From the sequence record CP053388.1: 64,000 nucleotides of DNA; one strand, 5' to 3'. The notes beneath the pieces were generated by a model, which was not told where the DNA came from, made no database searches, and saw only the letters and a program-made list of their open reading frames with translations. Both the position numbers and the translations under genes were made by a program. The first letter of the stretch is position 1; every line of letters begins with the position of its first letter. Of the stretch, positions 4,321-61,580 are shown in pieces. This DNA comes from Escherichia phage CMS-2020a.

Positions 4321-4383
4321 GTGTTTTCCTATGTGGTTGTTATGCGAAAATAATAAGTAAGTACTTATCTATTTTCAAGAGAT

Positions 4384-4407
4384 AAAAAAGGCGTCCTGTG
4401 GACGCCT
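4384..4407 (-). terminator. intrinsic terminator AGGCGTCC-TGT-GGACGCCT plus T-run
   Basis: hairpin and T-tract immediately after stop of RecA-like gene. Confidence 0.6.
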
Positions 4408-4412
4408 TGTGT

Positions 4413-5486
4413 TTACTCTTCTACTGACTCGGTGGGGTTGTCTTTTGCTCTTCGGTCGTCGATTGCCTGCAAAGCCGCAATGATTTCAGCCAGTGGCTTC
4501 TCCCGATACATCTCGACGATCTGCGATTTGGTGTATTTCTTGTCACCAATTTCAACTCGCCCGCTGGCGTTCTTTGGCAGGTATCCTTCTTCCAGCATGT
4601 ACTCGACGAGCGATTCGATAACGTCGAGGCCACGAGTAGGATCGAAGTAGAATTTCCAGGTGCATTTGCCATACGGTGGTGCAACTTTGTTTTTGATGCA
4701 TTCTGCGCCTACGTCCTGGCCGATCTTCTCTTTACCATCCTTCATCACCGATGCACCAAGACGGATACGTACAGAAGCGTAGAACTTCGGTGAATCTCCA
4801 CCTGGCGACGTAGTAGGGTCGCCAAACATTACACCGATTTTTGTGCGAACCTGATTCAAGAAGATGATGCAGGCGTTGTATTTGCGTGCCCACAAAGCCA
4901 GAGTAGGGAAGTTCGCACTTGTCGCACGAGCCAGTGCCGTATTGTCGTTCATGTTTAGCTGATCTTTGTCTTTGGCAGTGCCTTCAGCCATCTTTTCGAA
5001 CTTCTCGGCTTTGGAGTTCGGAACCATAGACGCAAGTGAGTCAGCCACGATACAGATAGGTGCTGATTCAGGAATAAGCTCTTCATCACGTACCAATTTA
5101 AGAATTGTGCCGATCAACTCTACAGAGTCTTCGAAGGTATCAGGCTGCTTGTATACCCACTGACCGTCATCCTCATCTGCGTTCAGGCCATTGGCTACAG
5201 CCAGGCCAACGTCAAAACTGTTTTCATGATCGAGGAATACCGCCAGACCATCTTGTTTTTGAGCGGAGATCATCGCTGCTGTTGCAAGGAACGTTTTCCC
5301 TGCACTTGGAGGACCGAATACTTCGACGATACGACCACATGGGAAGCCGCCATCGTAACGACCAGAAATAGCTTTGTTTAACGGTGGAAAGCCTGTATCA
5401 ATCCAATGAGTTACTTTCTGAATTTCGTCGTTGCTACCGATTTTCTTTTTCAGAGCAAGTGCCAGTGCGGATTTTCCTTTTGCCAT
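4413..5486 (-). CDS. RecA/UvsX-family recombinase ATPase
   Basis: Walker A GPPSAGKT, RecA-like core spacing. Confidence 0.7.
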   Translation of the reverse strand: MAKGKSALALALKKKIGSNDEIQKVTHWIDTGFPPLNKAISGRYDGGFPCGRIVEVFGPPSAGKTFLATAAMISAQKQDGLAVFLDHENSFDVGLAVANGLNADEDDGQWVYKQPDTFEDSVELIGTILKLVRDEELIPESAPICIVADSLASMVPNSKAEKFEKMAEGTAKDKDQLNMNDNTALARATSANFPTLALWARKYNACIIFLNQVRTKIGVMFGDPTTSPGGDSPKFYASVRIRLGASVMKDGKEKIGQDVGAECIKNKVAPPYGKCTWKFYFDPTRGLDVIESLVEYMLEEGYLPKNASGRVEIGDKKYTKSQIVEMYREKPLAEIIAALQAIDDRRAKDNPTESVEE

Positions 5487-5488
5487 GA

Positions 5489-5761
5489 TCAGGCTCCTTT
5501 TGTTTCGTTGATTCGTTTTAAAGCGGCGGATTCGTCGAATACAATCGCATCGTGGTTAAGGAGTCTGGATACACGAGCGAGGATTTTTACGACCTGCTCG
5601 CTGACTAATCCAAACTCGCGATCTGTCGCTTTCATTCCGGCAGCGCCTAGAATTGACGGCAGTGCGATGACAGCGTACTCACCGTGATAAAAGACAATCT
5701 CTTTTGCCAGTTGGGCAGGGGTGGTTGTAGCGCCATTAATAATCGATTTAAGCATTAGCAA
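5489..5761 (-). CDS. hypothetical protein (90 aa)
   Basis: ORF tightly packed between exonuclease and recombinase genes. Confidence 0.4.
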   Translation of the reverse strand: MLMLKSIINGATTTPAQLAKEIVFYHGEYAVIALPSILGAAGMKATDREFGLVSEQVVKILARVSRLLNHDAIVFDESAALKRINETKGA

Positions 5762-6699
5762 TACCTTTCGAATGGAAGAACAAACACTTCAAGGTCTTCA
5801 AGGAACGAACGGAAATTCAGCTCGTAGCACAGTTGCTCGAATGCTTTCACGTCACGATTGCCTTTGATTGTTTCGATTTCGGTAGGCGGAAACTTCGTCT
5901 CAATCAGGTTCATTAGCGTGATGTTTCTCTTGAACGCTTCGAGCATTCGACAGCCTGTTTTCTCGTTGAAGGCATTCTTCGCTAGTTTGTTGAAGGCGGT
6001 CTTATGGCGTCCTTTGTCAACCACGATTGAGCCGTCGTTGATACCGCGTACCATCGTTGCGACACTTCCCCATTCATGCAGCAGCTCTTTCGCACCGCCA
6101 GCACCAATGCCACCAACACCGCTAATGTTGTCCGATTTATCGCCTTGTAATGCTTTTGCTTCCAAAAATGCGCGAGGAGTAGCGAATCCTGTCAGTTCCG
6201 CAAATTGCTCAAAATTAACCTGCTTGTTTTTGGCGTCTTCGCGCAGGCTTACCCAGCTTACGTTTTCGCGAACTAACTGAAGCCAGTCGCTATCGCCTGT
6301 TAACAGATAGATGTGTTCAACGATTGGCTGCGGTGCAATGCTGGCTACCAGCAGCCCGGCCAGATCATCCGCTTCTGCATCTTTTGCAATGAGTTGGGTA
6401 ACTCCAAGCGCGGTCATCATTTTGAGGATGTATGGCTTCTGGATAGCAAAGCCTTCCTTCATCTTTTTCATATCAGGATCGTCGTCGCGATTTGCTTTGT
6501 AGTCCGGGTAAAAGTCGCGACGCTTGTCACTAAATCCATCCCAAAGAATCATAGGTCGGGCATGGAGGATGGAGGCATAACGACGGACGTTCTTAACAAA
6601 GCCGAAAGCAGCCTGTACTTCCATTTCGCCGTTGTGCAATTTGTCAGATTGTTGGTGGTAATAACCCAGGCTATTGCCATCTACGAAGAGATAATTCAC
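5755..6699 (-). CDS. 5'-3' exonuclease / flap endonuclease (FEN-like)
   Basis: N-terminal YLFVDGNSLGYY, helix-hairpin-helix GVGGIGAGGAKELL; start placed at in-frame GTG 6699 because terminator hairpin 6721-6742 lies inside the longer ORF to 6750. Confidence 0.75.
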   Translation of the reverse strand: MNYLFVDGNSLGYYHQQSDKLHNGEMEVQAAFGFVKNVRRYASILHARPMILWDGFSDKRRDFYPDYKANRDDDPDMKKMKEGFAIQKPYILKMMTALGVTQLIAKDAEADDLAGLLVASIAPQPIVEHIYLLTGDSDWLQLVRENVSWVSLREDAKNKQVNFEQFAELTGFATPRAFLEAKALQGDKSDNISGVGGIGAGGAKELLHEWGSVATMVRGINDGSIVVDKGRHKTAFNKLAKNAFNEKTGCRMLEAFKRNITLMNLIETKFPPTEIETIKGNRDVKAFEQLCYELNFRSFLEDLEVFVLPFERYC

Positions 6700-6714
6700 C
6701 GGTACATTCCTTCC

Positions 6715-6742
6715 AAAAAGTAAGGCGTCCGTAGACGCCTTA
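6715..6742 (-). terminator. intrinsic terminator TAAGGCGTC-CGTA-GACGCCTTA plus T-run
   Basis: hairpin and T-tract after SSB stop; same stem sequence family as terminators at 3250 and 4390. Confidence 0.55.
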
Positions 6743-6759
6743 CTGGTCACGTAATGGGA

Positions 6760-7788
6760 TTACAGAGAGTCCAGCTCTCTCAGTAGGTCATCCAGACCTT
6801 CATCTTCCGTCGCAGATGCGGCTGCTACAGATGTCGCTGCGACTGCTTCAGACTCTTTGACTGATACTGCAACGGCAGCGGGACTTGCTTCTGGTTTAAA
6901 TTCAGTTTCAACGGCACGGAGGATTTCTTCATCAACCAGACTGGTTGGTTCAGAAGCTGGGGTATGAGCGGTAGCTACAGCAGTCGCACCCTCCGTATGA
7001 CCAGTGACAGAGCCAAATCCAGGTAGTGCCGCAGCCGATGTTTTCGCGGTTGAGGAAATTGCTGGTGCAGATGCTGCGGCAGTTGGTGCAGCGATGCCAA
7101 TCAGACGACCCATAGTGCGAACTGTCGACAGAAGACGAGTTTCATCAGCCTGATTTGCGTATGCGATCAGATCATGCTGGGTATTCCAGAATTTATCTTC
7201 GATATCGCCTTTGTAGACTTTACGCTTAGGCGAGACGTCATATTTGGTATCGCGACCAGAGCCAGTACGTTTAATCAGGAATGCGTAGCCTTCCTCTTTG
7301 CTCAGTGGATTGCCGATATCATCAGCGATGTCTTCGGTGATTGCTTTGCAGATATCATCGAATACAGTAGACGGCAGCTCGATTAACTGGCATTTCTCAG
7401 CATCTGCGAAATCCTCACGAGCAGAAAGAATGCCGTTGACCAGGTAGCGAGGAGTGGCACGCATTTGACCGATGCGTTCTTCCATTGCTTTGTTACCCTT
7501 GTGACGAGCGCGACCTTCCATCACCATTTCGCATAGCTGACAAGCGCGACCGTGAGTATGTTGCTCACAAATATAAGCGTTGGTTGCTTCTTTACCTTCC
7601 TCGTTCTGATACTTAACGTAGTGCATACCGAAAGTCTGGAAGAACTTACCGTTTGGGTCGTCTTTATTCGGGAAGATGCGGATATAGTTGACGCCGTCTT
7701 TTAAGCGAGTCAGATCAACGTTGTTACCACGTTTGGCGGCAATGTCTTCACGAGTTTTGTTAAGCAAATCAAGTAATGTCTTAGACAT
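6760..7788 (-). CDS. ssDNA-binding protein, T4 gp32-like
   Basis: N-terminal YIRIFPNKDD resembling recalled gp32 motif, Cys/His zinc-site cluster CEQHTHGRACQLC, acidic C-terminal tail DEGLDDLLRELDSL. Confidence 0.65.
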   Translation of the reverse strand: MSKTLLDLLNKTREDIAAKRGNNVDLTRLKDGVNYIRIFPNKDDPNGKFFQTFGMHYVKYQNEEGKEATNAYICEQHTHGRACQLCEMVMEGRARHKGNKAMEERIGQMRATPRYLVNGILSAREDFADAEKCQLIELPSTVFDDICKAITEDIADDIGNPLSKEEGYAFLIKRTGSGRDTKYDVSPKRKVYKGDIEDKFWNTQHDLIAYANQADETRLLSTVRTMGRLIGIAAPTAAASAPAISSTAKTSAAALPGFGSVTGHTEGATAVATAHTPASEPTSLVDEEILRAVETEFKPEASPAAVAVSVKESEAVAATSVAAASATEDEGLDDLLRELDSL

Positions 7789-7905
7789 GTGTTTCTCCTT
7801 GTTGTGATTTGGCCGATGGCGCTATGCGCGTTGGGCTTTCGTTCATTCGTGGCTCTTTCGAGCTGTTAAATGATAGATCAGTACTTACTTATTATCTATC
7901 AAAAA

Positions 7906-8337
7906 TCAACGGGGAGTAATAAAGCGTTCAGAGCCTAATCGCTCTAATTCAACGATGGCCATCTTTGACGCCTGAACGATCATGTCTCGGCGATGCGAAA
8001 AGGCGGCGACAGCATGTTTGTATATGTCTGCGATGTGCCGTGCTTCATCCAACTTCTGCCGTTTAGACAGATACTGTGGGTTTGTTTTAACCTTAGCGTC
8101 CAGTACAGATTCGTTGAACTTAATGCCGTTCATACTCAAGTTCTTACGCTCTGTGTCGTATAGCTTTGCTTCAACAGCTTCAAGGTTAAGTTTTGCCTCT
8201 GCGACACTTCTTTCTGCATGAGCGAGTTTTGAGCCATACTCCATTAAAAGGCGGGGTTGTCTACGCCAGACTTCCTCCAGATTGTCTCGGTCAAACTCGA
8301 GATCAGACATTATTTTCTCGTAAATATCGGTGATCAT
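7906..8337 (-). CDS. hypothetical protein (143 aa), coiled-coil
   Basis: ORF between DnaE and SSB genes. Confidence 0.45.
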   Translation of the reverse strand: MITDIYEKIMSDLEFDRDNLEEVWRRQPRLLMEYGSKLAHAERSVAEAKLNLEAVEAKLYDTERKNLSMNGIKFNESVLDAKVKTNPQYLSKRQKLDEARHIADIYKHAVAAFSHRRDMIVQASKMAIVELERLGSERFITPR

Positions 8338-8431
8338 GTGCTTTCCTTTTTACTTATCATCTTATATTGATTATATCATTGTGATGATAAGGCAAGGAGT
8401 TCGAGGATAGGGGATATGAGGGGATAAGAGA

Positions 8432-8456
8432 AAACATGGCCATAGAGGCCATGTTT
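8432..8456 (-). terminator. hairpin AAACATGGCC-N5-GGCCATGTTT followed by T-rich tract
   Basis: 10-bp perfect stem directly after DnaE stop. Confidence 0.5.
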
Positions 8457-8462
8457 ATGGGA

Positions 8463-11400
8463 TCACGTCTTAATGGTTTCTGCTACGTCGGCTAATATCG
8501 CTTCTAGTCGTTCTCCCTCTTCAGGTCTGAAGTAAAGAATGTTGGGGTTAAACCCGTAAAAGACAGTAACGTCAAGGTCTGGAAGATACTCCTTCCTGCC
8601 GACCAAATCGGATGGCTTGTTTTTGTTGTTAAACAATGCCGTTGCCCGGCTACCACACGTCAGCACATAGGTCGGGCGCACCAGATTGATCTCTTCACGC
8701 ATAAAGTCGGTGAACTGGCCGATCTCGTCTTTGGTGTAGTCCTTTTCTTTGTCTTTCACCTTTTTGCAAACGCCTGTGACATAGAGATCGCCCATGCGCA
8801 AATCCCCAGCCGTCAACAGCTTGGCCTTAAAATCGTCGTATCCGTTCTCCATAAAGTAACCGGTTCGAGCATCATTGCCGTTCGCATTGTCCAGAATGAT
8901 CATGATTTTCGGCTTAATACCAATGCTGGGGCGGATTAGTTCATCACCTAAGCCCATTTCAGCCGCCATCCGCGTCATGAGTACGTTAATCTCAGCCGAA
9001 CGTTTGGGGTTCATCTCAAACGGACGTGAGGCTTTAACTGCGTCTATGACAAGGTCTCCCATCAATTCAGCCTGGTCGCGTAGGCGCTCTGGATCAGTTG
9101 CTGGCAGACTACCTGGCTCGATGGATGCAAACGCCCCTACTTTTTGCAGCGATTCGCGCACTCGACTATTACAGGCACGTTTCTCGACAGCTTCTTCGAA
9201 TTGCGCCAGTGACTCGAATTTGCCGCCAACTTTTTCTCGCGCTCTCATGATGGCTTGGCAGCCATTCTCAGAACACCCCTTCACAGCAGAGAAGGGCGCA
9301 TACAGCACCTGGCTGCCATCTTCAAGCGTGCGGATCTCGATTCGGTTAGATGACACGTTAACGTCTGGTGGCAATACGCGAATGCCATAGGTCAGCGCAT
9401 CCTTAACCAGCCCCTGGTGCTTATCCTCGCCCAGAATGGTGAGCGCAGCAGCGAAGAACTCAGCAGGGTAATGTGTCTTTAACCACATAGACTGATAGCT
9501 GATTAAAGAATAAGCAACACTGTGTGATTTGTTGAAGGCATATCCACCGAACTTCTCAAAGGCGTCCCATATTTCTTGGGCTTTTTCCTTACTGAGACCT
9601 TCCTGTTCAGAGACGATCTCCACGTAGTCTATGCCGTCACTAATAGCCTCGCTGTAGCTTCTACGCTTACCGTCTGAGCAATCCAGTTTTGCGTGTTTGT
9701 GAACCTCTACAGTACCTCCATTTTTGAGTGACAGTGTCACCCAGCCTGCTTGTGCTCGTTCTACAAAATCGCTGCCGATCGCTTTCATCTTATCCATGTT
9801 CTTTTTACCGATAGCGGAACGCAGAGCGTCTGCTTCGGCCATAGAGAACCCGGCAAGTACTCGGGAACTTTGCATGATTTGTTCCTGATAGAGCAAAACA
9901 CCATTAGTCTCCCGGGTGACTTCCTCAAGACGCGGATGAATTGAATGTGGAGCCATGAAGCCTTTGGCCACGGACACATAATCGTCCAACATGCCGGATT
10001 GAATCGGGCCAGGTCGGAAGAGCGCAGTCGTAGCAACAACCGTTTTAAAGCTCATTGGCTCAATTCCACCACCTAAATCTTTAAGCAGCTTGCGCATTGG
10101 GCCTGATTCAAGCTGGAAAACACCTTGAGTGTACCCAGCAGCAAAACCATCCAGCACCTTGCGATCTTCAAGAGAAATGGCATCAAGATTGATATCTTCA
10201 CCTGTGTTCTCTTTTATGTAGCGTTTTGCACTATCGAGCAAATCGAGAGTTGCCAGACCGAGTACGTCCAGCTTAATTAGGCCCATAGCCTCGCAGTAAC
10301 GCTTGTCAAATGCGATACAACGCGCGTCACCACGGCGTTCAACCGGTGTACGTTCTGTCAGAGGAACACCTGCTACGATCATCCCTGCCGCATGTCTACC
10401 AAAGCCACGCATAAGGCTTTGTAACTTGCAGGCTGCATTGAATGCATCAGGATATTTTGTTGCGTATTTGTCGAGACTTGCCAGTTGTTCGCGCAGCTCC
10501 TCCAATGGAAGGCTATCATCCTCGACGTTCTTCAGCTCTTTTGATACCGCCATATCTGCGGACTCCACACCATAAATACGAGCGGTATCACGTAGTGCAG
10601 AGGCTGCGCCCAGGTAGGTGAAGTTCGGAATGCCTGCAACGTAATCTTCGCCGTAGCGTTCATTCAGATACTCGATCACCTCATGGCGACGTGCCTGGCT
10701 GAAGTCCAAGTCCGCATCCGGCAAGTCGAGACGCTCAGGGTTGATGAAACGCTCAAACAGAAGACCGTGACGGATTGGGTCGACGTTGGTTATGCCTATG
10801 CACCACGCCACCAGAGAACCGGCAGAGGAACCACGACCAGGCCCAACGGGAATGCCAGTTTCACGACTATGATTCATCAGATCGCGCACCATCAGGAAGT
10901 AACCACAGAATCCCAGGCGAGTCAGCGTGTCCATTTCGTACTTTAGCCGCTCAACATAAACCCTGTTCTCAGAAGCAGGTGGTGTGTAGCCAAACTCTTT
11001 TGTGGTAAGACGTTTACGCAGCCCTGCAACAGCCAGTTTCATCAGCGTTGCAGGCTCGTCGTCTGCCATCTTTGGCAGTGCTGGCGGCAATTCATGCCAG
11101 CGCCATGTGCAGGCATCGATAATGGTATCCTGCGTTGTTGAGGCCATTGCAGCTGTTACCGGCACATCCATGCGAACGGAGAAGGCTTTAAGCGCCTCAA
11201 GGAGATGGCGGCGACCATTGACGGCGTTATCTCGCTGGTGGGGGATACGCAGACGATGCGGCTGGTCGATTTTTATGTTGTTCGTAACCATGTGCGCAAT
11301 GTCTTTAATGTCTGCATCGTCGATCGATTCGTAATAAGCGGGATAGAACGCCACTGGCTCTATTTTCAATGCGCTGGCGACTTTCATCGCCCGGACGTTA

Positions 11401-11969: not shown

Positions 11970-12147
11970 GTGTTTTTACCTTTCTGGTTTTTTTGATTTT
12001 GTCATTGGGGAAGCCTACGAACTTCCCATGCATCGAAATCGCAACTTCTTTTGCTGATTGGTGACAATCGGGCTTGTCTGGACACACCAGACAAGCCTTA
12101 CCAGTTTCAGAAGCAGCGATAAGAGAGCCGAAACATCCTTTACGCAC
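11944..12147 (-). CDS. small Cys-rich protein (67 aa)
   Basis: ORF with C-x2-C...C-x4-C-H pattern; overlaps DnaE start by 25 bp. Confidence 0.3.
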   Translation of the reverse strand: MRKGCFGSLIAASETGKACLVCPDKPDCHQSAKEVAISMHGKFVGFPNDKIKKTRKVKTHEGTDGSN

Positions 12148-12149
12148 GA

Positions 12150-13385: not shown

Positions 13386-13480
13386 GCGTTTTTCCTTTGT
13401 TCTCTAATGAGCGTTCAACTTCTTATATAAATATATCATCATCTATCGTAAGTGGTTACTTATCATTAAGGCTGTTTTGT

Positions 13481-18220: not shown

Positions 18221-18229
18221 CGTTCAACC

Positions 18230-20261: not shown

Positions 20262-20265
20262 CAAA

Positions 20266-52492: not shown

Positions 52493-52530
52493 TCATTGCG
52501 CTAATAGTAAGTATATACTTACCAATTGAG

Positions 52531-52887: not shown

Positions 52888-52915
52888 CAAACTTGCAAAC
52901 GCTTCAATAAACACA

Positions 52916-53389: not shown

Positions 53390-53820
53390 ATATTCGCCCC
53401 TACTTCAAGATGCCCAGGTCTTCCTCGTAGCCCCCAGCGGCGATGAACACTGGACGCCTTTAATTTTTGACCTTCAAGGATCAGTACATCATCAAGTTGT
53501 ACAGCCGCTTCTAAAGGGACTACTAACACAGCATCAAACAGCTCCAGACTCGCCTTACCACGACTACCAGAGCTATCAGCACGAACTGACGATTTCTCAT
53601 TACTCTGTTCGAACTTAACCACGCCGACATTCGTCTTCCTGACGAATTGTAATTGCGCCTCACCGTAAACGTTCTTTGCGCCAAAGCGGTAGATCGCAAT
53701 TTCTGTTTGCCATGAAATATTCATGCTCTCTCCCTGTTGTTGTCGGTCGCTCTCATTACTGGCCAAAAACCCTTTCGACCAAAAGTAAATAATGCGACTG
53801 GCGTTACGCACGGCGAACAA
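53380..53820 (-). CDS. head-tail connector protein candidate
   Basis: position; 146 aa. Confidence 0.4.
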   Translation of the reverse strand: MFAVRNASRIIYFWSKGFLASNESDRQQQGESMNISWQTEIAIYRFGAKNVYGEAQLQFVRKTNVGVVKFEQSNEKSSVRADSSGSRGKASLELFDAVLVVPLEAAVQLDDVLILEGQKLKASSVHRRWGLRGRPGHLEVGANIWV

Positions 53821-54637
53821 TCATACGGTTGTTGATGTAACTGACCAGCAAGCGCCAGGTACTACGAGCCACATGCACGTTTGCAGCTTTACCGGTACGG
53901 TACATGTTGGTTGTTTCACCGATGGACTCTGACAAAATGCCATCCTCTCGTGCTGCGGCTACATCATTGCCATTTGCGATCTCACACGCTTCGTTGACAA
54001 CGGCAAGCATCAACGCTTCTTTGAAGTAGTCAGGGAACTCTTCAAACTTCTCCTGCGTCATCTTTTCCCAATCGACTAAATCATGCCGGTACGCTCCATC
54101 TGCTCCCCACGGAATGTCATACACATTCAGCATATTTTGAGGGCGATCGTATCGGTCAAAGTCGATACGTAGAATTTTGCGGATTGAGAACGGTAAAGTT
54201 TTAATTCGTCTGGTAGCCTCAATGAGACGCTTGCGCATTAAGCCTTCACCATCCGACAGCAAAGTGTCCCCATTCAGCATATCGATCGCCTGCATTTGAG
54301 CATCAGCGACAGTTGCAAACGACTGTTCTGGTATCGACAGTTCAAAACTATTCAGCAGAACATACATTTGCCGCTCTTCATGCGTCAGACCCGATGCAAC
54401 AGCCTTCACAATGACGTACCGCAGATCTCGCTCTTTCTCAGAGAGCTGGTTATATTCAGCCGACACGACAACCGGAATCGACATTTGACCGCTGGTAATT
54501 TCTAGCGGCTCGCCATCAACGAGAATAGCCCCGGTGCTGTCCTTTACTGTGTAGGTAGCAGATTCGATATCCAGCACGTTGAAGGCAAATGAAAGAGAAA
54601 CAGCTTCACCGCTACGATACGAGTCGATCTGCGCCAT
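53804..54637 (-). CDS. hypothetical structural protein (277 aa)
   Basis: within head/connector module. Confidence 0.4.
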   Translation of the reverse strand: MAQIDSYRSGEAVSLSFAFNVLDIESATYTVKDSTGAILVDGEPLEITSGQMSIPVVVSAEYNQLSEKERDLRYVIVKAVASGLTHEERQMYVLLNSFELSIPEQSFATVADAQMQAIDMLNGDTLLSDGEGLMRKRLIEATRRIKTLPFSIRKILRIDFDRYDRPQNMLNVYDIPWGADGAYRHDLVDWEKMTQEKFEEFPDYFKEALMLAVVNEACEIANGNDVAAAREDGILSESIGETTNMYRTGKAANVHVARSTWRLLVSYINNRMIVRRA

Positions 54638-55071
54638 TACTCACCGCCTTGTGCTTTCAGGATGCCTTCAATCATCTCGACAATTCCTTTCGCTTTGACA
54701 CCAACCTGATTACCAATAACTCGTAGACCGGCAATACCTTCGTTGTCTGCAATGGACTCCAGCTCTTCTCGTGTGAAAGCCTGGATCTGTTTGGCCGGTT
54801 CATCTGGTGTTCCACGTTTCATTGGCACAATGTCAGGCGCTGCTGGCTCGGTAATCAGGTCTGCTGTCAATTCACCACGATCACTGTATGCGGCAGACGG
54901 AGAAACATTTTTGCCCTCTACTGTTGACGCTCGCATTGAAGCACAAATCCTCTGCTGATCGATAAAAGGCAACTCCGCTACGGATACCCCGTTCTCGAAC
55001 TGAACGCCGCACAGCATTCCCGAATAACCGGAAAATTGCGGTTCTAATAAAACAATTTTTGCTGGTTTCAT
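54637..55071 (-). CDS. hypothetical structural protein (144 aa)
   Basis: within head module. Confidence 0.4.
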   Translation of the reverse strand: MKPAKIVLLEPQFSGYSGMLCGVQFENGVSVAELPFIDQQRICASMRASTVEGKNVSPSAAYSDRGELTADLITEPAAPDIVPMKRGTPDEPAKQIQAFTREELESIADNEGIAGLRVIGNQVGVKAKGIVEMIEGILKAQGGE

Positions 55072-55115
55072 AACGCTTTCTCTCCTCTTGGGCGGCTTTC
55101 GCCGCCCAATGTCGG

Positions 55116-56036
55116 TTATTCCTGTGCGGCAGTGACCTCTACGGTCGCTGTCGCTTTGTGGCTACCATCTTGGGTAGTAACCTCGATTGTGGCAGTACCA
55201 GCCGCAACACCAGTTACAACACCGGTTTCGCTGTCCACCGTTGCAAACTCGGTATTTTTAGATTCCCAAGTAACGGTTTTATTTGTGGCTCCTGCCGGCT
55301 CGACATTTGCGGTCAGCTGAACAGTTTTGTTTGCCTCAACGGTTGTGCTATTTGGGTCGATTCCGACGCCGGTAACAGCCACAACAGGCGCAGTTACTTC
55401 CACCGTTGCAGTTGCCTTTTTGCTGCCATCTTGGGAAACGATCTCAATCGTCGCAGTGCCAACTTCTACACCAGTAACGTTCCCGCTCTGGTCTACCGTT
55501 GCCTTGTCTTCATTTTTGGAAGACCAGGTAACTGCCTTATTCGTCGCATTTGACGGCTGAACATTCGCTTTCAGACTGACTGATTTCCCTTTCTCAACAG
55601 AGGTTGAGTCTGGCGTTACCGTTACGGATTTAACGGCTACCGGATTTACGGTGACTTCCACTGACGCGGAAAGCTGGGTTTCCTGATCAGTTGCGGTAAT
55701 TTTCACTTTGCCTGGGGCTACGCCAGTTACTAATCCAGTGCCGTTAACGGTTGCAATTTGATCATTGGCTGACTTCCAGGTAAATGAACTGGCACTCTTA
55801 CCCATACTAATACCTGCACTAAGTTGAACAGTTTTCCCAACCAAAACTGATGGTGAAGCCGGAGTTATGTTTACGGATTGGGAGAAGGGAACCGCCTGCA
55901 AACAAGCAGATAGCTGACTTTGTTGCCGCTCGGTTAAAGGTTCATCGGAGATAGAATTGGTAAATCCGGCGCGGCACATATGCCCCGTAAAATCCGAAAA
56001 TGCCTCTTCCGTAATCTTCATCTTTTGTTCTGGCAT
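55116..56036 (-). CDS. Ig-like (Big_2) repeat protein, head decoration candidate
   Basis: three Ig-like repeats (TVQLTANVEP, WSSKNEDKATVDQSG type); follows capsid gene. Confidence 0.5.
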   Translation of the reverse strand: MPEQKMKITEEAFSDFTGHMCRAGFTNSISDEPLTERQQSQLSACLQAVPFSQSVNITPASPSVLVGKTVQLSAGISMGKSASSFTWKSANDQIATVNGTGLVTGVAPGKVKITATDQETQLSASVEVTVNPVAVKSVTVTPDSTSVEKGKSVSLKANVQPSNATNKAVTWSSKNEDKATVDQSGNVTGVEVGTATIEIVSQDGSKKATATVEVTAPVVAVTGVGIDPNSTTVEANKTVQLTANVEPAGATNKTVTWESKNTEFATVDSETGVVTGVAAGTATIEVTTQDGSHKATATVEVTAAQE

Positions 56037-56109
56037 TTCTTGCTCCTACAAAAAGGGTGGGCGTATAGCCCACCCTTAAACATAGATAATTACTTATCTA
56101 CAACACTGA

Positions 56110-56985
56110 TTAAATTTTTACATTGGTCAGTGCAGCGATAGCCTTATCGTGCTTATTCGCCAGAGAGCAGTACCACTTCACACGGGTACGTACTGCGTCT
56201 TTGTTCTGTACAGTACCAATGTTTTCAACAACGATACCTGCGTTGTCGCCGCCATACAGACCAGTAACGCCGTTCTCTTCTGACAGATGCAGGCAGTAGA
56301 TGCTTGCTTTGCCAGCATCGGTCGGAATGAAGTCGTTTACGATAAACGGAACGCCGTTATGGCACAGCATCGGACGACCGAAGTTCTCCATCATGATTTC
56401 AGACGGACCTACGTTTACTGTACGCAGCAGCGCACGGTAAGCACGCAGGTGCTCTGAACGCATCATGATGCAGTCAGCACCAAGATCTTTCACCGCATCG
56501 ACCAGTTCGTCGAACATGGAGAAAGTCATAGATGCACCGGCGATATCGATCTTCTGATCTGCGTGCATCAGGCGTGGAATGCCGTCAAACGCCTTGTTGT
56601 TAGTGGTGGAGTCGCCAACAATCAGATTGCGACGGAAGGCACGAGCCAGACCTTTGACTTTCTGACGAACCTGGATAGCCAGCTGGTTGTTGGTATCAGC
56701 CATAGTGGTAGCCAGGAATTTGTCGACGTCAACGTCGCCAGCCAGAATGCGCAGCTTCGCAACTTTCTCTTCGAAGGTTGCTGCACCTTCGGTGATGGTG
56801 TCGTTCACATCAATGAAAGTAGCTTCGCTCAGCGTTTTTTCACGGTTGTACAGATATGCCTTTGAATTAATTTTCATAAAAGGCAGGATGGCAAACAGGT
56901 CATCGCGATCGATGATAGTTTCGATCACACCCTGTTCAAGTTCGTTGTTAGACAGCTTTTCAGCTTCTTCACGCAGTAATGGCAT
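56110..56985 (-). CDS. major capsid protein candidate
   Basis: 291 aa gene immediately after scaffolding gene. Confidence 0.6.
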   Translation of the reverse strand: MPLLREEAEKLSNNELEQGVIETIIDRDDLFAILPFMKINSKAYLYNREKTLSEATFIDVNDTITEGAATFEEKVAKLRILAGDVDVDKFLATTMADTNNQLAIQVRQKVKGLARAFRRNLIVGDSTTNNKAFDGIPRLMHADQKIDIAGASMTFSMFDELVDAVKDLGADCIMMRSEHLRAYRALLRTVNVGPSEIMMENFGRPMLCHNGVPFIVNDFIPTDAGKASIYCLHLSEENGVTGLYGGDNAGIVVENIGTVQNKDAVRTRVKWYCSLANKHDKAIAALTNVKI

Positions 56986-57010
56986 CTATCAATTCCCTTT
57001 GATTTAGATG

Positions 57011-57898
57011 TTACTTAAGTCCAATTTTCCCCAGACCGGAGGCCAACTTATCCATAGTCGACTTGTTCTTCGGTTGGGATATTGTGTAGGTCGATTTGGA
57101 ATGTGAGCCTACACCCTGCTTGGCTTCGCTACGCATCAATGCGTCAGCTTCCGGATCTGCCCGCACAATGCGTTCAATCGCGGATTCAAACGGCAACGGC
57201 TTACCTTCACCGTCAACCAGAACAGCTCGTTCTTTATGACCTGCCGGTTTGTCATAACCCACTACGCTACCGTCTTCACCCACTTCAAAATGAGAACCGT
57301 AGATCACGCGGGCTTTTGCCGGGGTCATCAGAACTTTGTCACGTAGGAAGAGAGAGTTACTGAAGGAAGCGCCCACGGTCATCTCGACTAATTGAGATTT
57401 CAGTGATGCGTTTTCACTTTCCAGTGCTGTATAACGTTCGTCACGCTGTGCCAGCTCTGCCTGGTGTGCTTCGATCATCTGTTTTTTAACAGCATCGAAC
57501 TCACCACGACGCTCCAGTTCAGCTTGCTCCGCCTCACGACGTGCATTTTCTGCGGCCTGTTCAGCTTCTAAAAGCTGGCGAGCACGCGCCGGGTCGATAT
57601 CACCGTACTGAGCAAGCTGATCGGCCAATGTGCGCTCTTTCTCTTTGCGCTTCATGTTCTCCTTCAGCAGTTCAGCACCAGCTTTCTTGGTTTTACGAAG
57701 TTCGGCCAGTAACTCTTCCTGAGTCATGCCAGCGTATTCGTCATCGCCCTTCGGCTGCTCTTTTTGTTCACCCTGTTTGTCAGGATCTTGTGTGCTCTGC
57801 TCATTATCAGCAGCTACACCGCCAGCGCCTCCACGCTCATGCGCTTCAGCGACATCCATCAGACCACGACGGGCCAAAAGCATTTGCCACAGATTCAT
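57011..57898 (-). CDS. scaffolding protein candidate
   Basis: charged coiled-coil 295 aa between portal and capsid genes. Confidence 0.55.
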   Translation of the reverse strand: MNLWQMLLARRGLMDVAEAHERGGAGGVAADNEQSTQDPDKQGEQKEQPKGDDEYAGMTQEELLAELRKTKKAGAELLKENMKRKEKERTLADQLAQYGDIDPARARQLLEAEQAAENARREAEQAELERRGEFDAVKKQMIEAHQAELAQRDERYTALESENASLKSQLVEMTVGASFSNSLFLRDKVLMTPAKARVIYGSHFEVGEDGSVVGYDKPAGHKERAVLVDGEGKPLPFESAIERIVRADPEADALMRSEAKQGVGSHSKSTYTISQPKNKSTMDKLASGLGKIGLK

Positions 57899-57919
57899 AA
57901 AAATTCCTTTTGTTACTTA

Positions 57920-59494
57920 TCACTCGTTCTCTTGAGTAGATGAGTCCCCATTCCCTCGGGGTTGATCTTGCCCGCTTTCTTGGGCTGCACCACGATAATA
58001 AGTAAGTACTGACTTATTTTCAAGGGTATTTAGATCATTTTTTGGAGGAAAATTCAAGAGATCTTTATCAAATTCCTTTTTCATCGCCTCAGTAATGTTC
58101 GGGAAAATCTTCTCAATAAGCATTTCCATCTGGTGACGACGTACAGAGTCCGGTGCCTGAAGTAATGACAGTTTCTCGGCAACAGAAAATTCATCAGTAA
58201 GGCCACGAATATCGAAACTTTCTGGATACGCAATTAAAGAGTGGTCTTCGTCCAGATCTGCCCCCATCCATTTCGCAACCAGTAGCATGATTTGGCGTTC
58301 AGCCCTTTCCAGACGCTCTGCTTTTGTGACAAGCAAGCTATTTACACGCTGGAAGTCATACATTTTTGCGGCACCAGATGAATTATCGATTCCCTGTGCG
58401 TTGTCCTGCTTCGTTCGCTCACCAGCTACACCAACTGAATGGTAGATTTCGTTAATCACCGTCTTAATCGTAGTGATGATCATCTGAGCTTGTTTCGGGT
58501 CTGGTGACAGATAAAACGGCTGGTTTCCACCTTCAGAATCGTAGGTGAAGACTCGCTTTGTGCCCATTTCAAGCACTTTAGTGTGGTTTTCATCACCAGG
58601 TAAAAGCGACTGTACCGGTATAGCCAACTGGCTAAATGTCTGATCCTGAATAATGGCATCAAGGTTTGACAGATAGTTTGCAACCGCACGATCAAGATAA
58701 GCGATATCATCGATCAACGATGGGCTGAAATACGGTGATTCACTTTCTCCAATACAATCAACAGGAAACACAGGAACTACGCCGAGATTATGCTCACCGC
58801 TATCCTCTAAAATAACTTTTGCCTGACGGCGACCTGCTCCACCAGCGCCCTTCTTCACTTCCTCACGGAACAGATACCACTCGTTTTGTGTCCACAGACG
58901 ATAACGTTGGTATTCCTGACCTGTAGAAGTAAAAGGATCTGCGTCATCACGAGCGACTTCCACAATTAACGCCCACAACATATTCCCGTCGTCGTCCCAT
59001 GCCACATCCAGCATTTGCTGAGGTGAAATCCAGTAGGCGTAGGCGCGAGCATCTTTCTTTTTCTCGTCAGCTACTGACTCAACATCACCACTCATCGTGC
59101 TATCGACAACAACCCATATGCGACCGTAAATAGACGACTGCAAATCAATAGCGGCCATAAATGAGTCAATAGAGGCATTCTGGCGAGTCGCACGTTTCCA
59201 GAAATTGCGGATCTGCTCTGGTGCCTCTTCGATATTTCTATGAATGTCTTCTTTAAAGAGATATTTGTTGATGAGGTTTACCACCTCACGAGTGTGGTTG
59301 AAGCGATAAGCACGTTCAACTCGCTCCTTAAACTCCTGATCTCCCTCTTTAAAGTAACGAAAGATATTGTCTGTAAACCAACCACGCCCGCCAGCGTAAG
59401 TGCTGGCGAGGAAGTCCCAATGTTCTTTTTTCTTTTCGTATTCCGGGTGGCGTCGCGCCACCAGATCCTTAATTTGTTTGTCGTTCAATTCCAT
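57920..59494 (-). CDS. portal protein
   Basis: 524 aa directly after terminase large subunit. Confidence 0.7.
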   Translation of the reverse strand: MELNDKQIKDLVARRHPEYEKKKEHWDFLASTYAGGRGWFTDNIFRYFKEGDQEFKERVERAYRFNHTREVVNLINKYLFKEDIHRNIEEAPEQIRNFWKRATRQNASIDSFMAAIDLQSSIYGRIWVVVDSTMSGDVESVADEKKKDARAYAYWISPQQMLDVAWDDDGNMLWALIVEVARDDADPFTSTGQEYQRYRLWTQNEWYLFREEVKKGAGGAGRRQAKVILEDSGEHNLGVVPVFPVDCIGESESPYFSPSLIDDIAYLDRAVANYLSNLDAIIQDQTFSQLAIPVQSLLPGDENHTKVLEMGTKRVFTYDSEGGNQPFYLSPDPKQAQMIITTIKTVINEIYHSVGVAGERTKQDNAQGIDNSSGAAKMYDFQRVNSLLVTKAERLERAERQIMLLVAKWMGADLDEDHSLIAYPESFDIRGLTDEFSVAEKLSLLQAPDSVRRHQMEMLIEKIFPNITEAMKKEFDKDLLNFPPKNDLNTLENKSVLTYYRGAAQESGQDQPRGNGDSSTQENE

Positions 59495-59520
59495 TTGAAT
59501 AACCTTAGATAACTACTTAC

Positions 59521-60777
59521 CTATCGAGAACCACCAAGAATAACACGGTTTTTGACTGGATACCTACGATGTACTGGATAGCCCAATGCGTCTGCACTAT
59601 GCTCAATGCCACCTGTCTTATCCATATCTCGTGTTCCAGGCTTGTAGATGACTTTTTCCAGTGAATCAATCAAATGCTTGCACTTCGGATCGATATACAG
59701 CCGGATATCTCCAGATGCGGACATCAGCATTCGGTTAACAGCATTAACACGATCCGCAATTGGCGGGTGCTTTTTCGAATAATCGACACGTAAGAATCCC
59801 TTCTCTTTGAATATGTCTACGTCAGACTCCCCACGAGCATGTTGGCGATAAGCACCTGCCGGATCTGGAAATACCGTTACCTGTGATTTCCAGCGCCAGA
59901 AGCGTCTCTCAAGCTCATCACAAACTTCTGCCGTGTTAGAGGAAAAGAGCACCAATTCATCAATTGCCCATAGCTCACCATTTGGCTGAGGTTGCAAAAT
60001 TACTGAAGACATCGGGTCAATGTTGAAGTCCTGCCCTACCCATATAGGCAACCGAGGGTTGAACTGAAGCGGTTTTACATGCACGTTACGATCGAACGGG
60101 TAGTAAACGCGCCCGGACATGTTCTCAAAGCTGGCCAGGTACTCCTGAGCGAACGATTTGGGGTCCATATCGTTCTTAGCAGCTTCAATTTCCGCCGTAG
60201 GTACAAACGGAGAATCGGCAGTTACAAACTGCCAGCTCTTCCACTGTCCCTTTCTTTGCAGCTCTACGTTCTGGCCTATCGTCCACAGTTTGTGAAATTC
60301 CGAGAAGCCTTTTGGCGTACCAATGATCAGTGCACCGCCGCGTGTCGATGAAAGAGTAGGTCGTAACACCTTGTACCAGGTGTCAGCCTTCATATCCTGA
60401 AATTCATCAAGCACTACAAAATGCAACGCTACGCCGCGCAGAGTGTCAGGCTTATCAGCACCTTTGAGGGCGATCTCCGAACCGTTCTTCAACACGATTG
60501 TCATCGTGGTGTCGTTCTTTTTCCTAACCCACTTACGAGGCAGAACTTCCTGTAGATCGTCCCACAAAATCTGGCGAGCCATCTGGTAAGTAGGAGCGAC
60601 ATACCAGACCCTTTGCTTTTTTTCCTTTGCCGCCGCACGAATAATAGTGGAGATCGACAACCGGGATTTTCCCCAGCGTCGACCAGCACAAACAACTTTA
60701 AATCGATGCGGAGACTGGAAGACTTTCATCTGTCCAGAATGCAGTTGCACAAGACTGAGCGAGGACGGGATTGCCAT
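59521..60777 (-). CDS. terminase large subunit
   Basis: Walker A-like AGRRWGKS, Walker B VLDEFQD, acidic nuclease-type C-terminal region. Confidence 0.75.
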   Translation of the reverse strand: MAIPSSLSLVQLHSGQMKVFQSPHRFKVVCAGRRWGKSRLSISTIIRAAAKEKKQRVWYVAPTYQMARQILWDDLQEVLPRKWVRKKNDTTMTIVLKNGSEIALKGADKPDTLRGVALHFVVLDEFQDMKADTWYKVLRPTLSSTRGGALIIGTPKGFSEFHKLWTIGQNVELQRKGQWKSWQFVTADSPFVPTAEIEAAKNDMDPKSFAQEYLASFENMSGRVYYPFDRNVHVKPLQFNPRLPIWVGQDFNIDPMSSVILQPQPNGELWAIDELVLFSSNTAEVCDELERRFWRWKSQVTVFPDPAGAYRQHARGESDVDIFKEKGFLRVDYSKKHPPIADRVNAVNRMLMSASGDIRLYIDPKCKHLIDSLEKVIYKPGTRDMDKTGGIEHSADALGYPVHRRYPVKNRVILGGSR

Positions 60778-61409
60778 TATTCGTCCTCCCCTTCACTTCC
60801 ATCATCTGTCGCATCAAATTCGCTTAGAGCTTCTTCTTCCAACGTCTCAAGCAATTCGTCATCGATGATTTCAGGCTCGTCGTCTTCCTGACGTAATTTC
60901 GCCACCTGGGAAGGCGTAAGCTCACCAAATACCAGGTTCGGAATTTCTTCCTCGTCATTTTCCGCATGATCCATGCCCAATGCTTTGGACGAAACTTCAA
61001 AGCATTTTGCAAGGGTATTACTGGCTCTCTGTAAGCTCTTGAGAGAATCCTCAATCGCCCCTAAAGGCTTACCCTCACGTTTGGCCGTAGTGACTTCGAC
61101 CATCACCATCTGCCCCAACGCATACGCCCAGCCGTCATAACGTGTACGACGTTCTTCTATCTTTTCCGCACGGGCTTTAGCGCGAAGCTCTGCGTCAGAT
61201 TTAAGAGACTCACGAACCATCTTCCCAACAGAGTCCGCGCCTTTCTCTAATCCTCGCTTTTTGAAATGTCTGGAGAGTGTTTCACGACGAATGCCGTACT
61301 CTTCCTCCAGCTTTGAGAGTGTATATTCGCCTGACGTCCATTTGGCTTCAGCTTCGGCCCACTCCGCTGGTGTCAGGCGAGTTTTTACCTCGTCTTTTTC
61401 GACCGTCAT
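60777..61409 (-). CDS. terminase small subunit candidate
   Basis: 210 aa with HTH-like N-terminal region and acidic C-terminus; ATGA-coupled to large subunit. Confidence 0.55.
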   Translation of the reverse strand: MTVEKDEVKTRLTPAEWAEAEAKWTSGEYTLSKLEEEYGIRRETLSRHFKKRGLEKGADSVGKMVRESLKSDAELRAKARAEKIEERRTRYDGWAYALGQMVMVEVTTAKREGKPLGAIEDSLKSLQRASNTLAKCFEVSSKALGMDHAENDEEEIPNLVFGELTPSQVAKLRQEDDEPEIIDDELLETLEEEALSEFDATDDGSEGEDE

Positions 61410-61525
61410 AGATCCCTCTAAAACACACAGAGCGCGTCCATGCGCTCTAAAACAACTTGTTTACTGCATCTGCTAACCAACTTGTTTTCTGGGGTGTTTA
61501 ATTAGGTCTGGCATGTCTTACGAAG

Positions 61526-61580
61526 CCTGCTTCCGTATATATTTAATAAGTTACTTATTATTTATATATACAGAAGCAGG
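61526..61580. repeat. 55-bp near-perfect palindrome, copy 2 (identical to 28806..28860)
   Basis: exact 55-bp match read in sequence. Confidence 0.9.

Follow-up and report, generated by a model that had tools for sequence, protein, structure and literature searches.

The 64,000-nucleotide stretch of Escherichia phage CMS-2020a analyzed here (record CP053388.1; hereafter the window) belongs to an SSU5-like phage-plasmid, a relative of Escherichia phage Cyrano (pLF82), and carries a 22-bp palindromic dyad that recurs at the upstream border of most early and late lytic transcription units. We propose that this dyad serves as the operator through which a dimeric repressor encoded by the element silences the plasmid prophage, a reading to which we assign a probability of roughly 0.55.

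A dispersed 22-bp palindrome at lytic transcription units

Positions 52000 to 62000 matched Cyrano (OV696614, the pLF82 phage-plasmid of E. coli LF82) at 98.6% identity by megablast against phage records, Salmonella phage SSU5 at 81%, and several Klebsiella phage-plasmids at about 79%. By local blastn, the whole window is colinear with the assembled Cyrano genome at 96 to 98% identity but in reverse orientation, and the majority of window genes therefore lie on the minus strand. Gene names were carried over from the Cyrano annotation via tblastn, and the resulting gene map covers 91% of the window. Cyrano is a 5.5-copy plasmid that makes virions and is induced by ciprofloxacin (LF82 prophage study, PMC9928086).

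A palindromic 22-bp matrix trained on Cyrano, SSU5, and Klebsiella pJN2-26 (consensus GATAAGTAAGTACTTACTTATC) converged on 29, 28, and 30 sites, respectively, per complete genome. In the window it found 14 dyads scoring 18 bits or more, and 100 first-order Markov simulations built from the window's dinucleotide transition frequencies gave none. Overall, the window is credited with 14 to 16 dyads. The original prediction had named equal frequency in coding sequence as an outcome that would speak against the motif; clearly, this is not what we found, since 13 of the 14 strong sites are noncoding or overlap a gene end and only one lies within an open reading frame (ORF), that of the portal protein (57997 to 58018). 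Shorter forms behaved in the same way. GATAAGTA occurs in 11 copies (1.2 expected), 10 of them intergenic and none fully coding; TAAGTA-N(0-6)-TACTTA occurs six times (0.02 expected); and TAAGTA/TACTTA is the top enriched intergenic hexamer, with 31 occurrences in the 8.7% of the window that is noncoding and 13 in the 91% that is coding. Part of the depletion in genes is forced, because the dyad carries stop codons in two frames per strand, but this constraint does not account for the excess over shuffled sequence. The repeated dyad motif is real and nonrandom.

A layout of two half-sites separated by a spacer had been described previously. The actual element is a continuous 22-bp palindrome, RATARGTAAGT/ACTTACYTATY, with a GTAC center and a TA step every 4 bp. 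The apparent spacer reflects this 4-bp periodicity, which is clearest in the Klebsiella relative, where AATAGGTAAGTACTTACCTATT is common. Across 87 aligned sites the two halves are equally conserved (T7, 100%, and A16, 98%; T3, 91%, and A20, 94%; G6, 82%, and C17, 77%), and the aligned matrix overturned an early impression that the upstream half was the better conserved. The element is present at all 13 places where the original prediction had put a recurrent dyad upstream of operons, including the site inside the 3′ end of the portal ORF, although the copy at 13441 to 13470 is weaker than the others. Two full sites (2399 to 2420 and 19247 to 19268) and a partial copy before an XRE-type regulator gene (16103 to 16124) had been overlooked. 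The upper limit set previously, 61580, is the end of a different structure, a palindrome of about 54 bp (61509 to 61580), which is nevertheless related in that its center is a shortened dyad. The dyads of the window, with matrix scores, are as follows.

2399 to 2420: dyad, 21.5 bits; abuts the annotated start of an ORF of 59 amino acids (aa) in the hyp60/hyp61/Cra block; Cyrano ortholog 59398
4352 to 4373: dyad, 30.2 bits; in the spacer of TTGAAA-17-TATTAT (4350 to 4378, minus strand), after the RecA terminator and upstream of membrane/stomatin genes; Cyrano ortholog 57445
7872 to 7893: dyad, 26.0 bits; 12 nt past the UvsY stop, upstream of the gp32-like SSB gene
13447 to 13464: weaker dyad, 15.5 bits (18-bp matrix); CobT/CobS junction
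19247 to 19268: dyad, 23.8 bits; between the divergently oriented glutaredoxin gene and 302-aa ORF
21745 to 21766: dyad, 27.8 bits; 9 nt past the hyp39 stop, upstream of the tRNA cluster
25267 to 25288: dyad, 21.5 bits; 13 nt past the primase stop, within TTCAAA-17-TATCTT, upstream of hyp34; Cyrano ortholog 34729
28701 to 28722: dyad, 24.8 bits; 11 nt before the hyp31 start, at the head of the helicase/primase module; Cyrano expression falls by 6 log2 across the orthologous gap
33449 to 33470: dyad, 20.4 bits; precedes the holin/lysis genes, with a hairpin after it
39084 to 39105: dyad, 27.0 bits; tail J/tail fiber gap, then hairpin GGCGGGC-N7-GCCCGCC (39063 to 39083) on the gene strand
46004 to 46025: dyad, 24.8 bits; 7 nt past the tail M stop, then a hairpin (45973 to 45995) enclosing the tail L start codon
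52506 to 52527: dyad, 22.6 bits; 3 nt past the Tc1 stop, upstream of the major tail gene; Cyrano ortholog 9017
56081 to 56102: dyad, 19.1 bits; 7 nt past the major capsid stop, then an intrinsic terminator (56055 to 56075 plus a T run)
57997 to 58018: dyad, 28.3 bits; in the spacer of TTGAAA-17-TATTAT (57995 to 58024, minus strand), upstream of scaffold-like and capsid genes
59504 to 59525: dyad, 21.8 bits; overlaps the TerL stop, 9 nt from the portal start

Every first gene after a dyad has a lytic function. Distances to start codons, which the original prediction had proposed measuring, showed that in Cyrano the next plus-strand start follows the dyad at 0 to 160 nt. Many dyads begin −5 to +13 nt relative to the stop codon of the gene before them, and 8 of 27 lie within 20 nt of the start codon, with the Shine-Dalgarno-like sequence mostly downstream of the dyad. 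In about half of the sites, the last three bases of the dyad (TAT) open a −10-like TATNAT hexamer. At 4350 to 4378 and 57995 to 58024, the dyad exactly fills the 17-bp spacer of TTGAAA-17-TATTAT, with 10 of 12 consensus matches each, and the former was the best match in a sigma-70 consensus scan of positions 1 to 20000 (10/12). Weaker matches of 9/12 were found at 7870 to 7898 and 2397 to 2424. The portal-internal promoter recurs in Pectobacterium as TTGAAA-17-TATGAT, with that clade's own dyad in the spacer, and dyad-associated promoters in Acinetobacter include TTGAAA-18-TATACT and TTGAAA-17-TACAAT. In recognizable promoters, the dyad center falls at about −20. The earlier statement that the motif does not resemble sigma-70 elements thus holds only in part. 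It fails at the two sites where the dyad fills a promoter spacer, but this promoter layout is not general, and the collection as a whole has no gene-strand excess of promoter-like sequence.

We compared these positions with per-gene transcriptome sequencing (RNA-seq) values from the S1 table of PMC9928086, obtained for the LF82 lysogen in overnight LB cultures and in macrophages at 6 h. On the LB scale, the plasmid median, taken as background, is 9.8, the floor is 4.99, and the expression cutoff of the authors of that study is 49. None of the first genes after 19 strong dyads exceeded the cutoff in LB (median, 8.35; maximum, 43.7), and 18 other Cyrano genes reached it. Of the genes driven by near-consensus promoters with a dyad in the spacer, CYRAN_56 was at the floor (4.99) and CYRAN_4 was at 10.9, close to the background of 9.8. 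The gene behind the dyad at Cyrano 57445 (TTGAAA-17-TATCAT, the equivalent of window 4352) was at the floor of 4.99. A near-consensus promoter that is silent calls for a repressor, and because such promoters are silent in the lysogen and the dyad is the sole conserved feature inside the 57445 promoter, we infer that a repressor acts through it.

In macrophages, expression stepped up directly after the dyad at Cyrano 9017 (+2.5 log2), 34729 (+2.4), 57445 (+3.6), and 59398 (+3.65), and at 3526 it rose by 1.2 log2 after the dyad and then by 1.6 at the capsid gene. The site at 34729 was already leaky in the LB lysogen (43.7). Because the rises follow directly on the dyads, they suggest that these five are promoters that leak when repression weakens. 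Expression fell across other dyads, at Cyrano 5442 (−3.0 log2, together with the capsid terminator), 15528 (−1.9), 63198 (−2.35), and 77435 (−1.7), and at 31295 by 6.0 log2 between the ParA operon, which is expressed, and the replication module, which is silent. These drops, 1.7 to 6 log2 across six dyads in the lysogen RNA-seq, four of which have a hairpin or large palindrome nearby, are compatible with termination, a roadblock, or both.

A double-stranded DNA site with a probable element-encoded reader

Watson-Crick complementarity of mirrored positions equaled the independence expectation at all 11 pairs among the 87 sites; at the variable pair 5/18, for example, 41 complementary combinations were observed and 37.0 were expected. 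Because mirrored positions vary independently, whereas a hairpin would show compensatory change, the dyad fits a double-stranded DNA site for a symmetric protein oligomer. A role as an RNA or single-stranded DNA hairpin (a processing site, 5′ stabilizer, antitermination signal, or cruciform) could appeal to perfect copies able to form a 9-bp hairpin and to the location of dyads in transcribed intergenic gaps, frequently just upstream of terminators. However, apart from the missing covariation, the sequence itself is conserved beyond what pairing would demand (T7 at 100% and A16 at 98%), RNA folds of eight window dyads were weak (−4.3 to −11.1 kcal/mol) and in inconsistent registers, and an Rfam scan of the window matched only tRNA families and none for the dyads. 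Covariation, folding, and Rfam together led us to reject an RNA or cruciform hairpin, which we regard as extremely improbable.

Distant syntenic relatives carry their own versions of the dyad. Pectobacterium plasmid Drgb1 has 30 dyads of the form RRTAYGTATNTANATACRTAYY (also written AATAGGTATTTAAATACCTATT), and a 108-kb plasmid of Acinetobacter baumannii has 33 of the form AATCAGTCAGTACTGACTGATT; length, symmetry, and center are retained, and particular positions are altered symmetrically. Three motif versions thus correspond to three clades, namely E. coli/Salmonella/Klebsiella, Pectobacterium, and Acinetobacter. Considering Cyrano junctions with a strong dyad and a downstream gene that has a homolog in the relative, we found a cognate dyad at the orthologous junction in 20 of 20 cases for SSU5, 17 of 18 for pJN2-26, 9 of 13 for Pectobacterium, and 5 of 9 for Acinetobacter, where chance would give about a quarter (some 30 sites per approximately 120 genes). 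The UvsY/SSB and TerL/portal junctions have a cognate site in all four relatives, and the weaker CobT/CobS dyad has orthologs at Cyrano 45262, SSU5 45123, and pJN2-26 93367. The exact 20-mer ATARGTAAGTACTTACYTAT was found in 39 stretches of IMG/VR (2.9 million viral contigs), all of which align to SSU5 or pJN2-26. Because the junctions are kept while the sequence shifts by clade, and because the exact 20-mer is confined to the family, these data point to an element-encoded reader that has coevolved with its sites and make a host regulator unlikely.

The outer arms of the dyad (TGATAA...TTATCA) are superficially like Fur half-sites when set beside the Fur-box half-site consensus, and the TA steps recall IHF or Fis sites, as they might if a host regulator or nucleoid protein bound the dyad. 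Host global regulators and their boxes are conserved among the Enterobacterales clades and Acinetobacter, however, whereas the motif differs among them at the same junctions and its exact form is limited to the SSU5-like family among the 2.9 million viral contigs. We therefore give a host protein hardly any chance of being the reader. The earlier proposal that one dimeric DNA-binding protein coordinates early and late operons agrees with the equal halves, the lack of covariation, the orthologous junctions, and the clade-wise change of sequence.

Candidate binders and a model for repression

DNA-binding candidates kept in every clade are the XRE protein, an 88-aa protein, CYRAN_117, two ParB-like proteins, and an FljA-like protein. 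Under the repressor model the binder must be present in lysogens, and the LB lysogen values for candidates other than the XRE protein were 114 for CYRAN_117, 18 for the FljA-like protein, 7.8 for the 88-aa protein, 6.4 for a 71-aa protein, and 4.99 for the ParB-like CYRAN_119. Pfam searches with ten small candidates returned only a weak XRE match, a UmuD-like S24 peptidase, and the FljA-like protein. The features of the window most relevant to this comparison are the following.

16078 to 16124, plus strand: predicted promoter of the XRE gene (TTTACA-16-TAATAT at 16078 to 16105) with the partial dyad
16152 to 16538, plus strand: XRE-type helix-turn-helix (HTH) protein of 128 aa, homolog of CYRAN_45, gene convergent with the integrase gene
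61605 to 61871, minus strand: predicted MarR-like winged-helix protein of 88 aa, homolog of CYRAN_123

The XRE protein matched PHROG 8 (“transcriptional regulator”; E = 6.6e-12) and, below the 30.2-bit cutoff, Pfam HTH_19 (E = 0.0015, 18.9 bits); RefSeq labels its homologs XRE family, and Pfam detected no S24 peptidase domain in it. Its LB lysogen value of 95.8 is about 10-fold above background. A homolog sits next to the integrase in essentially all plasmid relatives, roughly 800 plasmids (996 records, including the distant Acinetobacter). The partial dyad GGTAAGCACTTACC (16105 to 16118) lies one base past TTTACA-16-TAATAT, at the expected XRE transcription start. GGTAAGYACTTACC, the inner 14 bp of the dyad, abuts the predicted XRE promoter in five genera or lineages, and a block before the gene, TGTAATATCRGTAAGYACTTACCA, is conserved in the pHCM2, pMT1, K. 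oxytoca, and K. pneumoniae relatives. In Acinetobacter, three cognate dyads precede the gene for the XRE homolog, one of them in the spacer of TTCAAA-18-TATATT. The predicted promoter and its partial dyad have the layout of classic autorepression.

Only the lytic phage SSU5, which keeps its dyads, lacks the XRE gene. Within a 2.6-kb stretch spanning the deletion point, the first 1.3 kb of SSU5 align with resident Enterobacter plasmids at 98 to 99% identity, and the alignment breaks where the integrase/XRE module would lie. XRE homologs beside an integrase are present in Enterobacter plasmids of the SSU5-like family. SSU5 looks like a recent deletion mutant that has lost lysogeny, so its retention of dyads is no argument against the XRE protein; we accordingly rejected the missing gene as counterevidence, the alignment break being consistent with a recent module deletion. 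The XRE recognition helix, YKNANNLSLIKSGKIPLP, is the same in the E. coli, pHCM2, and pMT1 proteins and almost the same in Klebsiella, at overall identities of 57 to 65%, and these clades all share one motif. The corresponding segment reads YSSHNNVSMLKSGKMLFP in Pectobacterium and FKRPNVLSMIKSGETRLP in Acinetobacter, both clades with different motifs. On the strength of its expression in lysogens, its deletion in lytic SSU5, and the partial dyad abutting its own promoter, the XRE protein ranks first among the candidate binders, although at somewhat less than even odds.

Next to this module, a near-perfect LexA box, TACTGTTTACTTATACAGT, lies at 17663 to 17682 (minus strand), about 27 nt upstream of the integrase start (17636). 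The integrase gene is convergent on the XRE gene, their 3′ ends overlapping by 6 nt, and the Cyrano integrase and divergent hyp46 rise strongly in macrophages. SOS-induced convergent transcription could reduce repressor expression.

An alternative is that the dyad serves a lytic-phase activator that replaces the −35 element and is made only after induction, for example, the 88-aa or the 71-aa protein. Most dyads lack a −35 yet have TATNAT at a fixed offset with the dyad center at about −20, and −35-poor promoters at Cyrano 9017 and 34729 show promoter activity. The original prediction had called the 88-aa protein an HTH protein. Its AlphaFold2 model (predicted local distance difference test [pLDDT] score, 82.7; topology helix-helix-helix-strand-strand-helix) and Foldseek matches to MepR, MarR, ZitR, and small archaeal or viral winged-helix proteins (template modeling scores of 0.73 to 0.77) bear this out as a predicted MarR-like winged helix; a Pfam search with it gave no match. 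It is specific to the SSU5-like family (798 plasmids, every clade including Acinetobacter), and its gene directly precedes terS and shows only background expression in the lysogen, as that of a lytic activator should. The 71-aa protein (22212 to 22427; CYRAN_37) is conserved in SSU5 and pJN2-26 only, and tblastn found no homolog in Pectobacterium. Against an activator, near-consensus sigma-70 promoters with a dyad should be constitutive but are silent in lysogens, and a partial dyad sits at the start site of the XRE gene, which lysogens express. Furthermore, TATNAT is equally frequent on the noncoding side and so belongs largely to the palindrome, the recognition helix of the 88-aa protein is invariant even across clades with different motifs, and a second dyad, GAAAACAAnTTGTT, found between the 88-aa gene and terS, offers that protein an alternative target. 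We consider an activator unlikely. The promoter specificity factor suggested earlier is also unlikely, given a true palindrome without strand bias in promoter-likeness and near-consensus promoters that contain the dyad and are silent in lysogens.

The second dyad is dispersed as well, with seven matches to GAAAACAAnTTGTT in the window (0.17 expected) at 3212 to 3225, 15607 to 15620, 27926 to 27939, 30856 to 30869, and 61448 to 61489. They closely precede hyp58, CobT, the helicase gene, ParA, and terS, the last with two or three copies. GAAAACAA is also overrepresented in Cyrano and SSU5. These sites suggest a second regulon with a second regulator, possibly the 88-aa winged-helix protein or the partner protein of ParA. 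The partner in question would be the product of the ORF after ParA (29792 to 30151, minus strand), which the Cyrano annotation calls a “RelE/ParE putative toxin.” This label is doubtful, for the protein (…KSRTMSLEDEYFELLEMMKF…FTRSDVIRAAIFHLAE…) has the look of a ParA partner of the ParG type, a ribbon-helix-helix protein that binds centromeres.

Dispersed palindromes are also used by KorB on plasmid RK2, which acts at OB sites, and the dyads might similarly be centromere-like or silencing sites of the ParB-like proteins CYRAN_119 and CYRAN_120 (the 3′ part of the CYRAN_120 homolog is at window positions 63659 to 64000). The sites are palindromic, numerous, and dispersed, one of them lies 16 nt upstream of the ParB operon, and the ParB-like genes are conserved in all clades. 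The lysogen is the state that needs partition or silencing, yet CYRAN_119 is at the floor there and CYRAN_120 at background; moreover, the expressed ParA has its own adjacent small partner, and the dyads are tied to gene starts and ends instead of being clustered. A ParB-like reader is thus very unlikely. CYRAN_117 (92 aa, outside the window) has a ribbon-helix-helix look by eye, but hhalign to CopG gave only E = 1e-3 at a probability of 19%, with no hhalign match to Mnt and no Pfam or PDB sequence match. Its AlphaFold2 model is poor (pLDDT, 61), and the strand residues that would face the DNA differ between clades with one and the same motif. We regard it as an unsupported candidate. The FljA-like CYRAN_114 (outside the window; segment 780 to 1301) matched Pfam Flag1_repress at E = 1e-80, is conserved in SSU5, pJN2-26, and the Pectobacterium relatives, and is weakly expressed in the lysogen.

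In the repressor model, a dimeric (or higher-order) element-encoded protein, probably the XRE protein, would occupy the dyads in the plasmid state. Where the dyad spans about −30 to −9 and shares three bases with the −10 element, the bound dimer would exclude RNA polymerase. Dyads with no recognizable −35 or with too little room before the ribosome-binding site may control weak promoters; alternatively, dyads outside promoters may act as roadblocks resembling the stoperators of phage L5 or cooperate with adjacent terminators. The XRE protein would repress its own gene through the partial dyad at its transcription start, and its loss or inactivation after DNA damage would free all units at once.

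Several observations weigh against this model. A G at the TTG position is found in only about 10% of sites, so that a recognizable −35 is rare, and the best promoter scores are equal on the gene strand and the opposite strand in four genomes. TATNNT, too, is equally frequent on the opposite strand, since it belongs to the palindrome. The start-proximal dyads, about a third of the total, cannot be conventional promoters for the next gene because they lie 0 to 20 nt from the start codon with the Shine-Dalgarno sequence downstream. Conservation that runs unbroken through 20 bp with a 4-bp period is not what one usually sees for a single HTH dimer. The correlation between XRE helix and motif is confounded with phylogenetic distance, and other conserved DNA-binding candidates exist (the 88-aa protein, the 71-aa CYRAN_37, CYRAN_117, and the two ParB-like proteins). 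The RNA-seq values come from Cyrano, which is 96 to 98% identical to the window, at low read depth and from an experiment designed for another question. Finally, simple promoter occlusion leaves unexplained the terminator-like hairpins downstream of dyads. In five genomes, stable hairpins within 40 nt were found downstream of 22 of 127 dyads and upstream of 8 of 127 (Wilcoxon P = 0.005). Some are obvious intrinsic terminators, and those at 56055 to 56075, 39063 to 39083, 45973 to 45995, and Cyrano 67905 to 67930 start 1 to 9 nt after the dyad on the gene strand. The order of stop codon, dyad, terminator, and next gene recurs in several clades at the capsid/Ig-like and RuvC/ribonucleotide reductase junctions. 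That all dyads are sigma-70 promoters of fixed geometry is ruled out by the lack of a gene-strand excess of −10 or −35 scores in the four genomes.

A more elaborate version, which we hold to be rather improbable, has one small XRE repressor governing a 100-kb element through about 30 sites of two kinds, promoter-operators and operator-then-terminator cassettes. At the promoter-operators, the dyad in the promoter spacer would block RNA polymerase. In the cassettes, a stop codon would be followed by the dyad and, 1 to 9 nt on, by a hairpin (capsid/Ig-like, tail J/tail fiber, and RuvC/ribonucleotide reductase junctions). The predicted start of the dyad promoter would be located in the terminator's 5′ arm. 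Transcription reading through from upstream would be stopped, and transcripts initiated within the cassette would be unable to form the hairpin and hence would escape. If this were true, each gene block would be insulated and separately repressible, and the pHCM2, pMT1, and Klebsiella phage-plasmids, which are clinically widespread, would fall into immunity groups according to motif version.

Other features of the window, known systems, and significance

The window opens with a RepA-like gene with iterons, followed by T4-like recombination/replication genes, cobalamin-type genes, and the XRE/integrase module. tRNA genes come next, then ligase, primase, and helicase, then ParA and toxin-antitoxin genes, and then the lysis genes. 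Tail and head genes, terS/terL, and an upstream operon closing with the 88-aa protein complete the order. At least six iteron copies (GATATGCTRTCAGCGGTA) lie at 1085 to 1631, downstream of the RepA-like ORF (1 to 1095). This ORF shares only 50% identity with Cyrano RepA, which suggests that the replicon was swapped relative to Cyrano. The RecA/UvsX-like gene of the window (4413 to 5486) encodes 357 aa; its Cyrano counterpart (55065 to 57404), annotated as 779 aa, has an insertion of approximately 1.26 kb, intein or homing-endonuclease-like, that the window gene lacks. Segments without a Cyrano counterpart (17767 to 18962, 19180 to 20262, 28870 to 29794, and 33432 to 36794) hold ORFs of 136, 202, 302, and 255 aa, a 279-aa ORF, and a divergent tail fiber C terminus that contains internal 79-nt and 300-nt repeats. 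They appear to be swaps of accessory or host-range cargo. The Chi site GCTGGTGG occurs 15 times in the window (1.35 expected), 12 of them on the minus (gene) strand and for example at 22893, 23078, 27098, 42715, and 58839, and 25 to 31 times in each complete genome (Cyrano, SSU5, and pJN2-26).

Two copies of a 72-nt repeat, 89% identical to each other, each carry the palindrome of about 54 bp (CCTGCTTCTGTATATATAAATAATAAGTAACTTATTAAATATATACGGAAGCAGG).

28789 to 28860: repeat copy 1, at the head of the hyp31/helicase/primase module
61509 to 61580: repeat copy 2, between the gene for the 88-aa protein and terS

The palindrome center, AATAAGT-A-ACTTATT, is a shortened dyad with the outer arms brought together. 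Cyrano expression falls by 6 log2 across the region of copy 1. This structure could serve for bidirectional termination, as an operator of a special kind, or as a site related to an origin or to packaging.

By size, the candidate binder, an XRE protein of 128 aa, differs from the C1 repressor of the phage-plasmid P1, which has 283 aa. In P1, this one repressor acts at about 22 dispersed operators and silences many lytic operons (PMC8546580), a similar number of sites in a similarly scattered layout. The P1 operator is 17 bp and asymmetric (ATTGCTCTAATAAATTT; PMC8546580), whereas the SSU5-like site is a true 22-bp palindrome of unrelated sequence. P1 late genes, furthermore, have a separate activator, Lpa, whereas the SSU5-like dyad precedes early and late genes alike. 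Lpa-dependent late promoters combine a −10 element with an inverted repeat near −22 in place of a −35. Their geometry resembles that of the SSU5-like dyads without a −35, but the SSU5-like dyad is found also in promoters with a good −35, which are silent in lysogens, and at the repressor gene.

The stoperators of Cluster A mycobacteriophages, bound by L5 gp71, number 20 to 30 per genome, with few in promoters and most in short intergenic gaps, and motif and repressor covary between subclusters (PMC6550527). SSU5-like dyads match them in number, in short-gap placement, and in having clade-specific motifs. A stoperator, however, is a site of 13 to 14 bp with no dyad symmetry that a monomer binds and whose orientation follows transcription, whereas SSU5-like dyads are palindromic and free of orientation. 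The elongation block exerted at stoperators is only hinted at in the SSU5-like elements by the expression drops across some sites. With the lambdoid and 434 XRE repressors, the element shares an HTH repressor gene divergent from an early lytic gene, an operator at the repressor's own promoter, and dyad operators that overlap the −35/−10 region, as those of lambda and 434 do. Lambdoid phages have two operator clusters and an antitermination cascade, in contrast to about 30 single sites over 100 kb, and the XRE candidate differs from their repressors in lacking an S24 peptidase domain by Pfam. The SSU5-like design thus resembles P1 C1 and the Cluster A stoperators but is a member of neither system, because the sites of both are asymmetric and read differently and the sequences and proteins are unrelated.

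Our literature search returned no description of lysis-lysogeny (immunity) control in SSU5-like elements, of promoters or operators in SSU5, pHCM2, or pMT1, or of the dyad motif. The family is widespread, with pHCM2 of S. Typhi, pMT1 of Y. pestis, pLF82/Cyrano, and hundreds of plasmids of Klebsiella, Enterobacter, and E. coli; PLSDB holds about 800 SSU5-like plasmids. For these elements, the motif provides a regulon map consisting of a 22-bp site, about 30 target junctions, three clade versions, and a short list of candidate readers. It may be used to predict immunity groups, to build inducible or locked derivatives, and to annotate transcription units across the SSU5-like family. If the dyad is indeed the operator of an element-encoded repressor, the principle of one repressor acting at many dispersed sites, known from P1 and the Cluster A mycobacteriophages, would extend to a third, unrelated lineage, here with a symmetric site.

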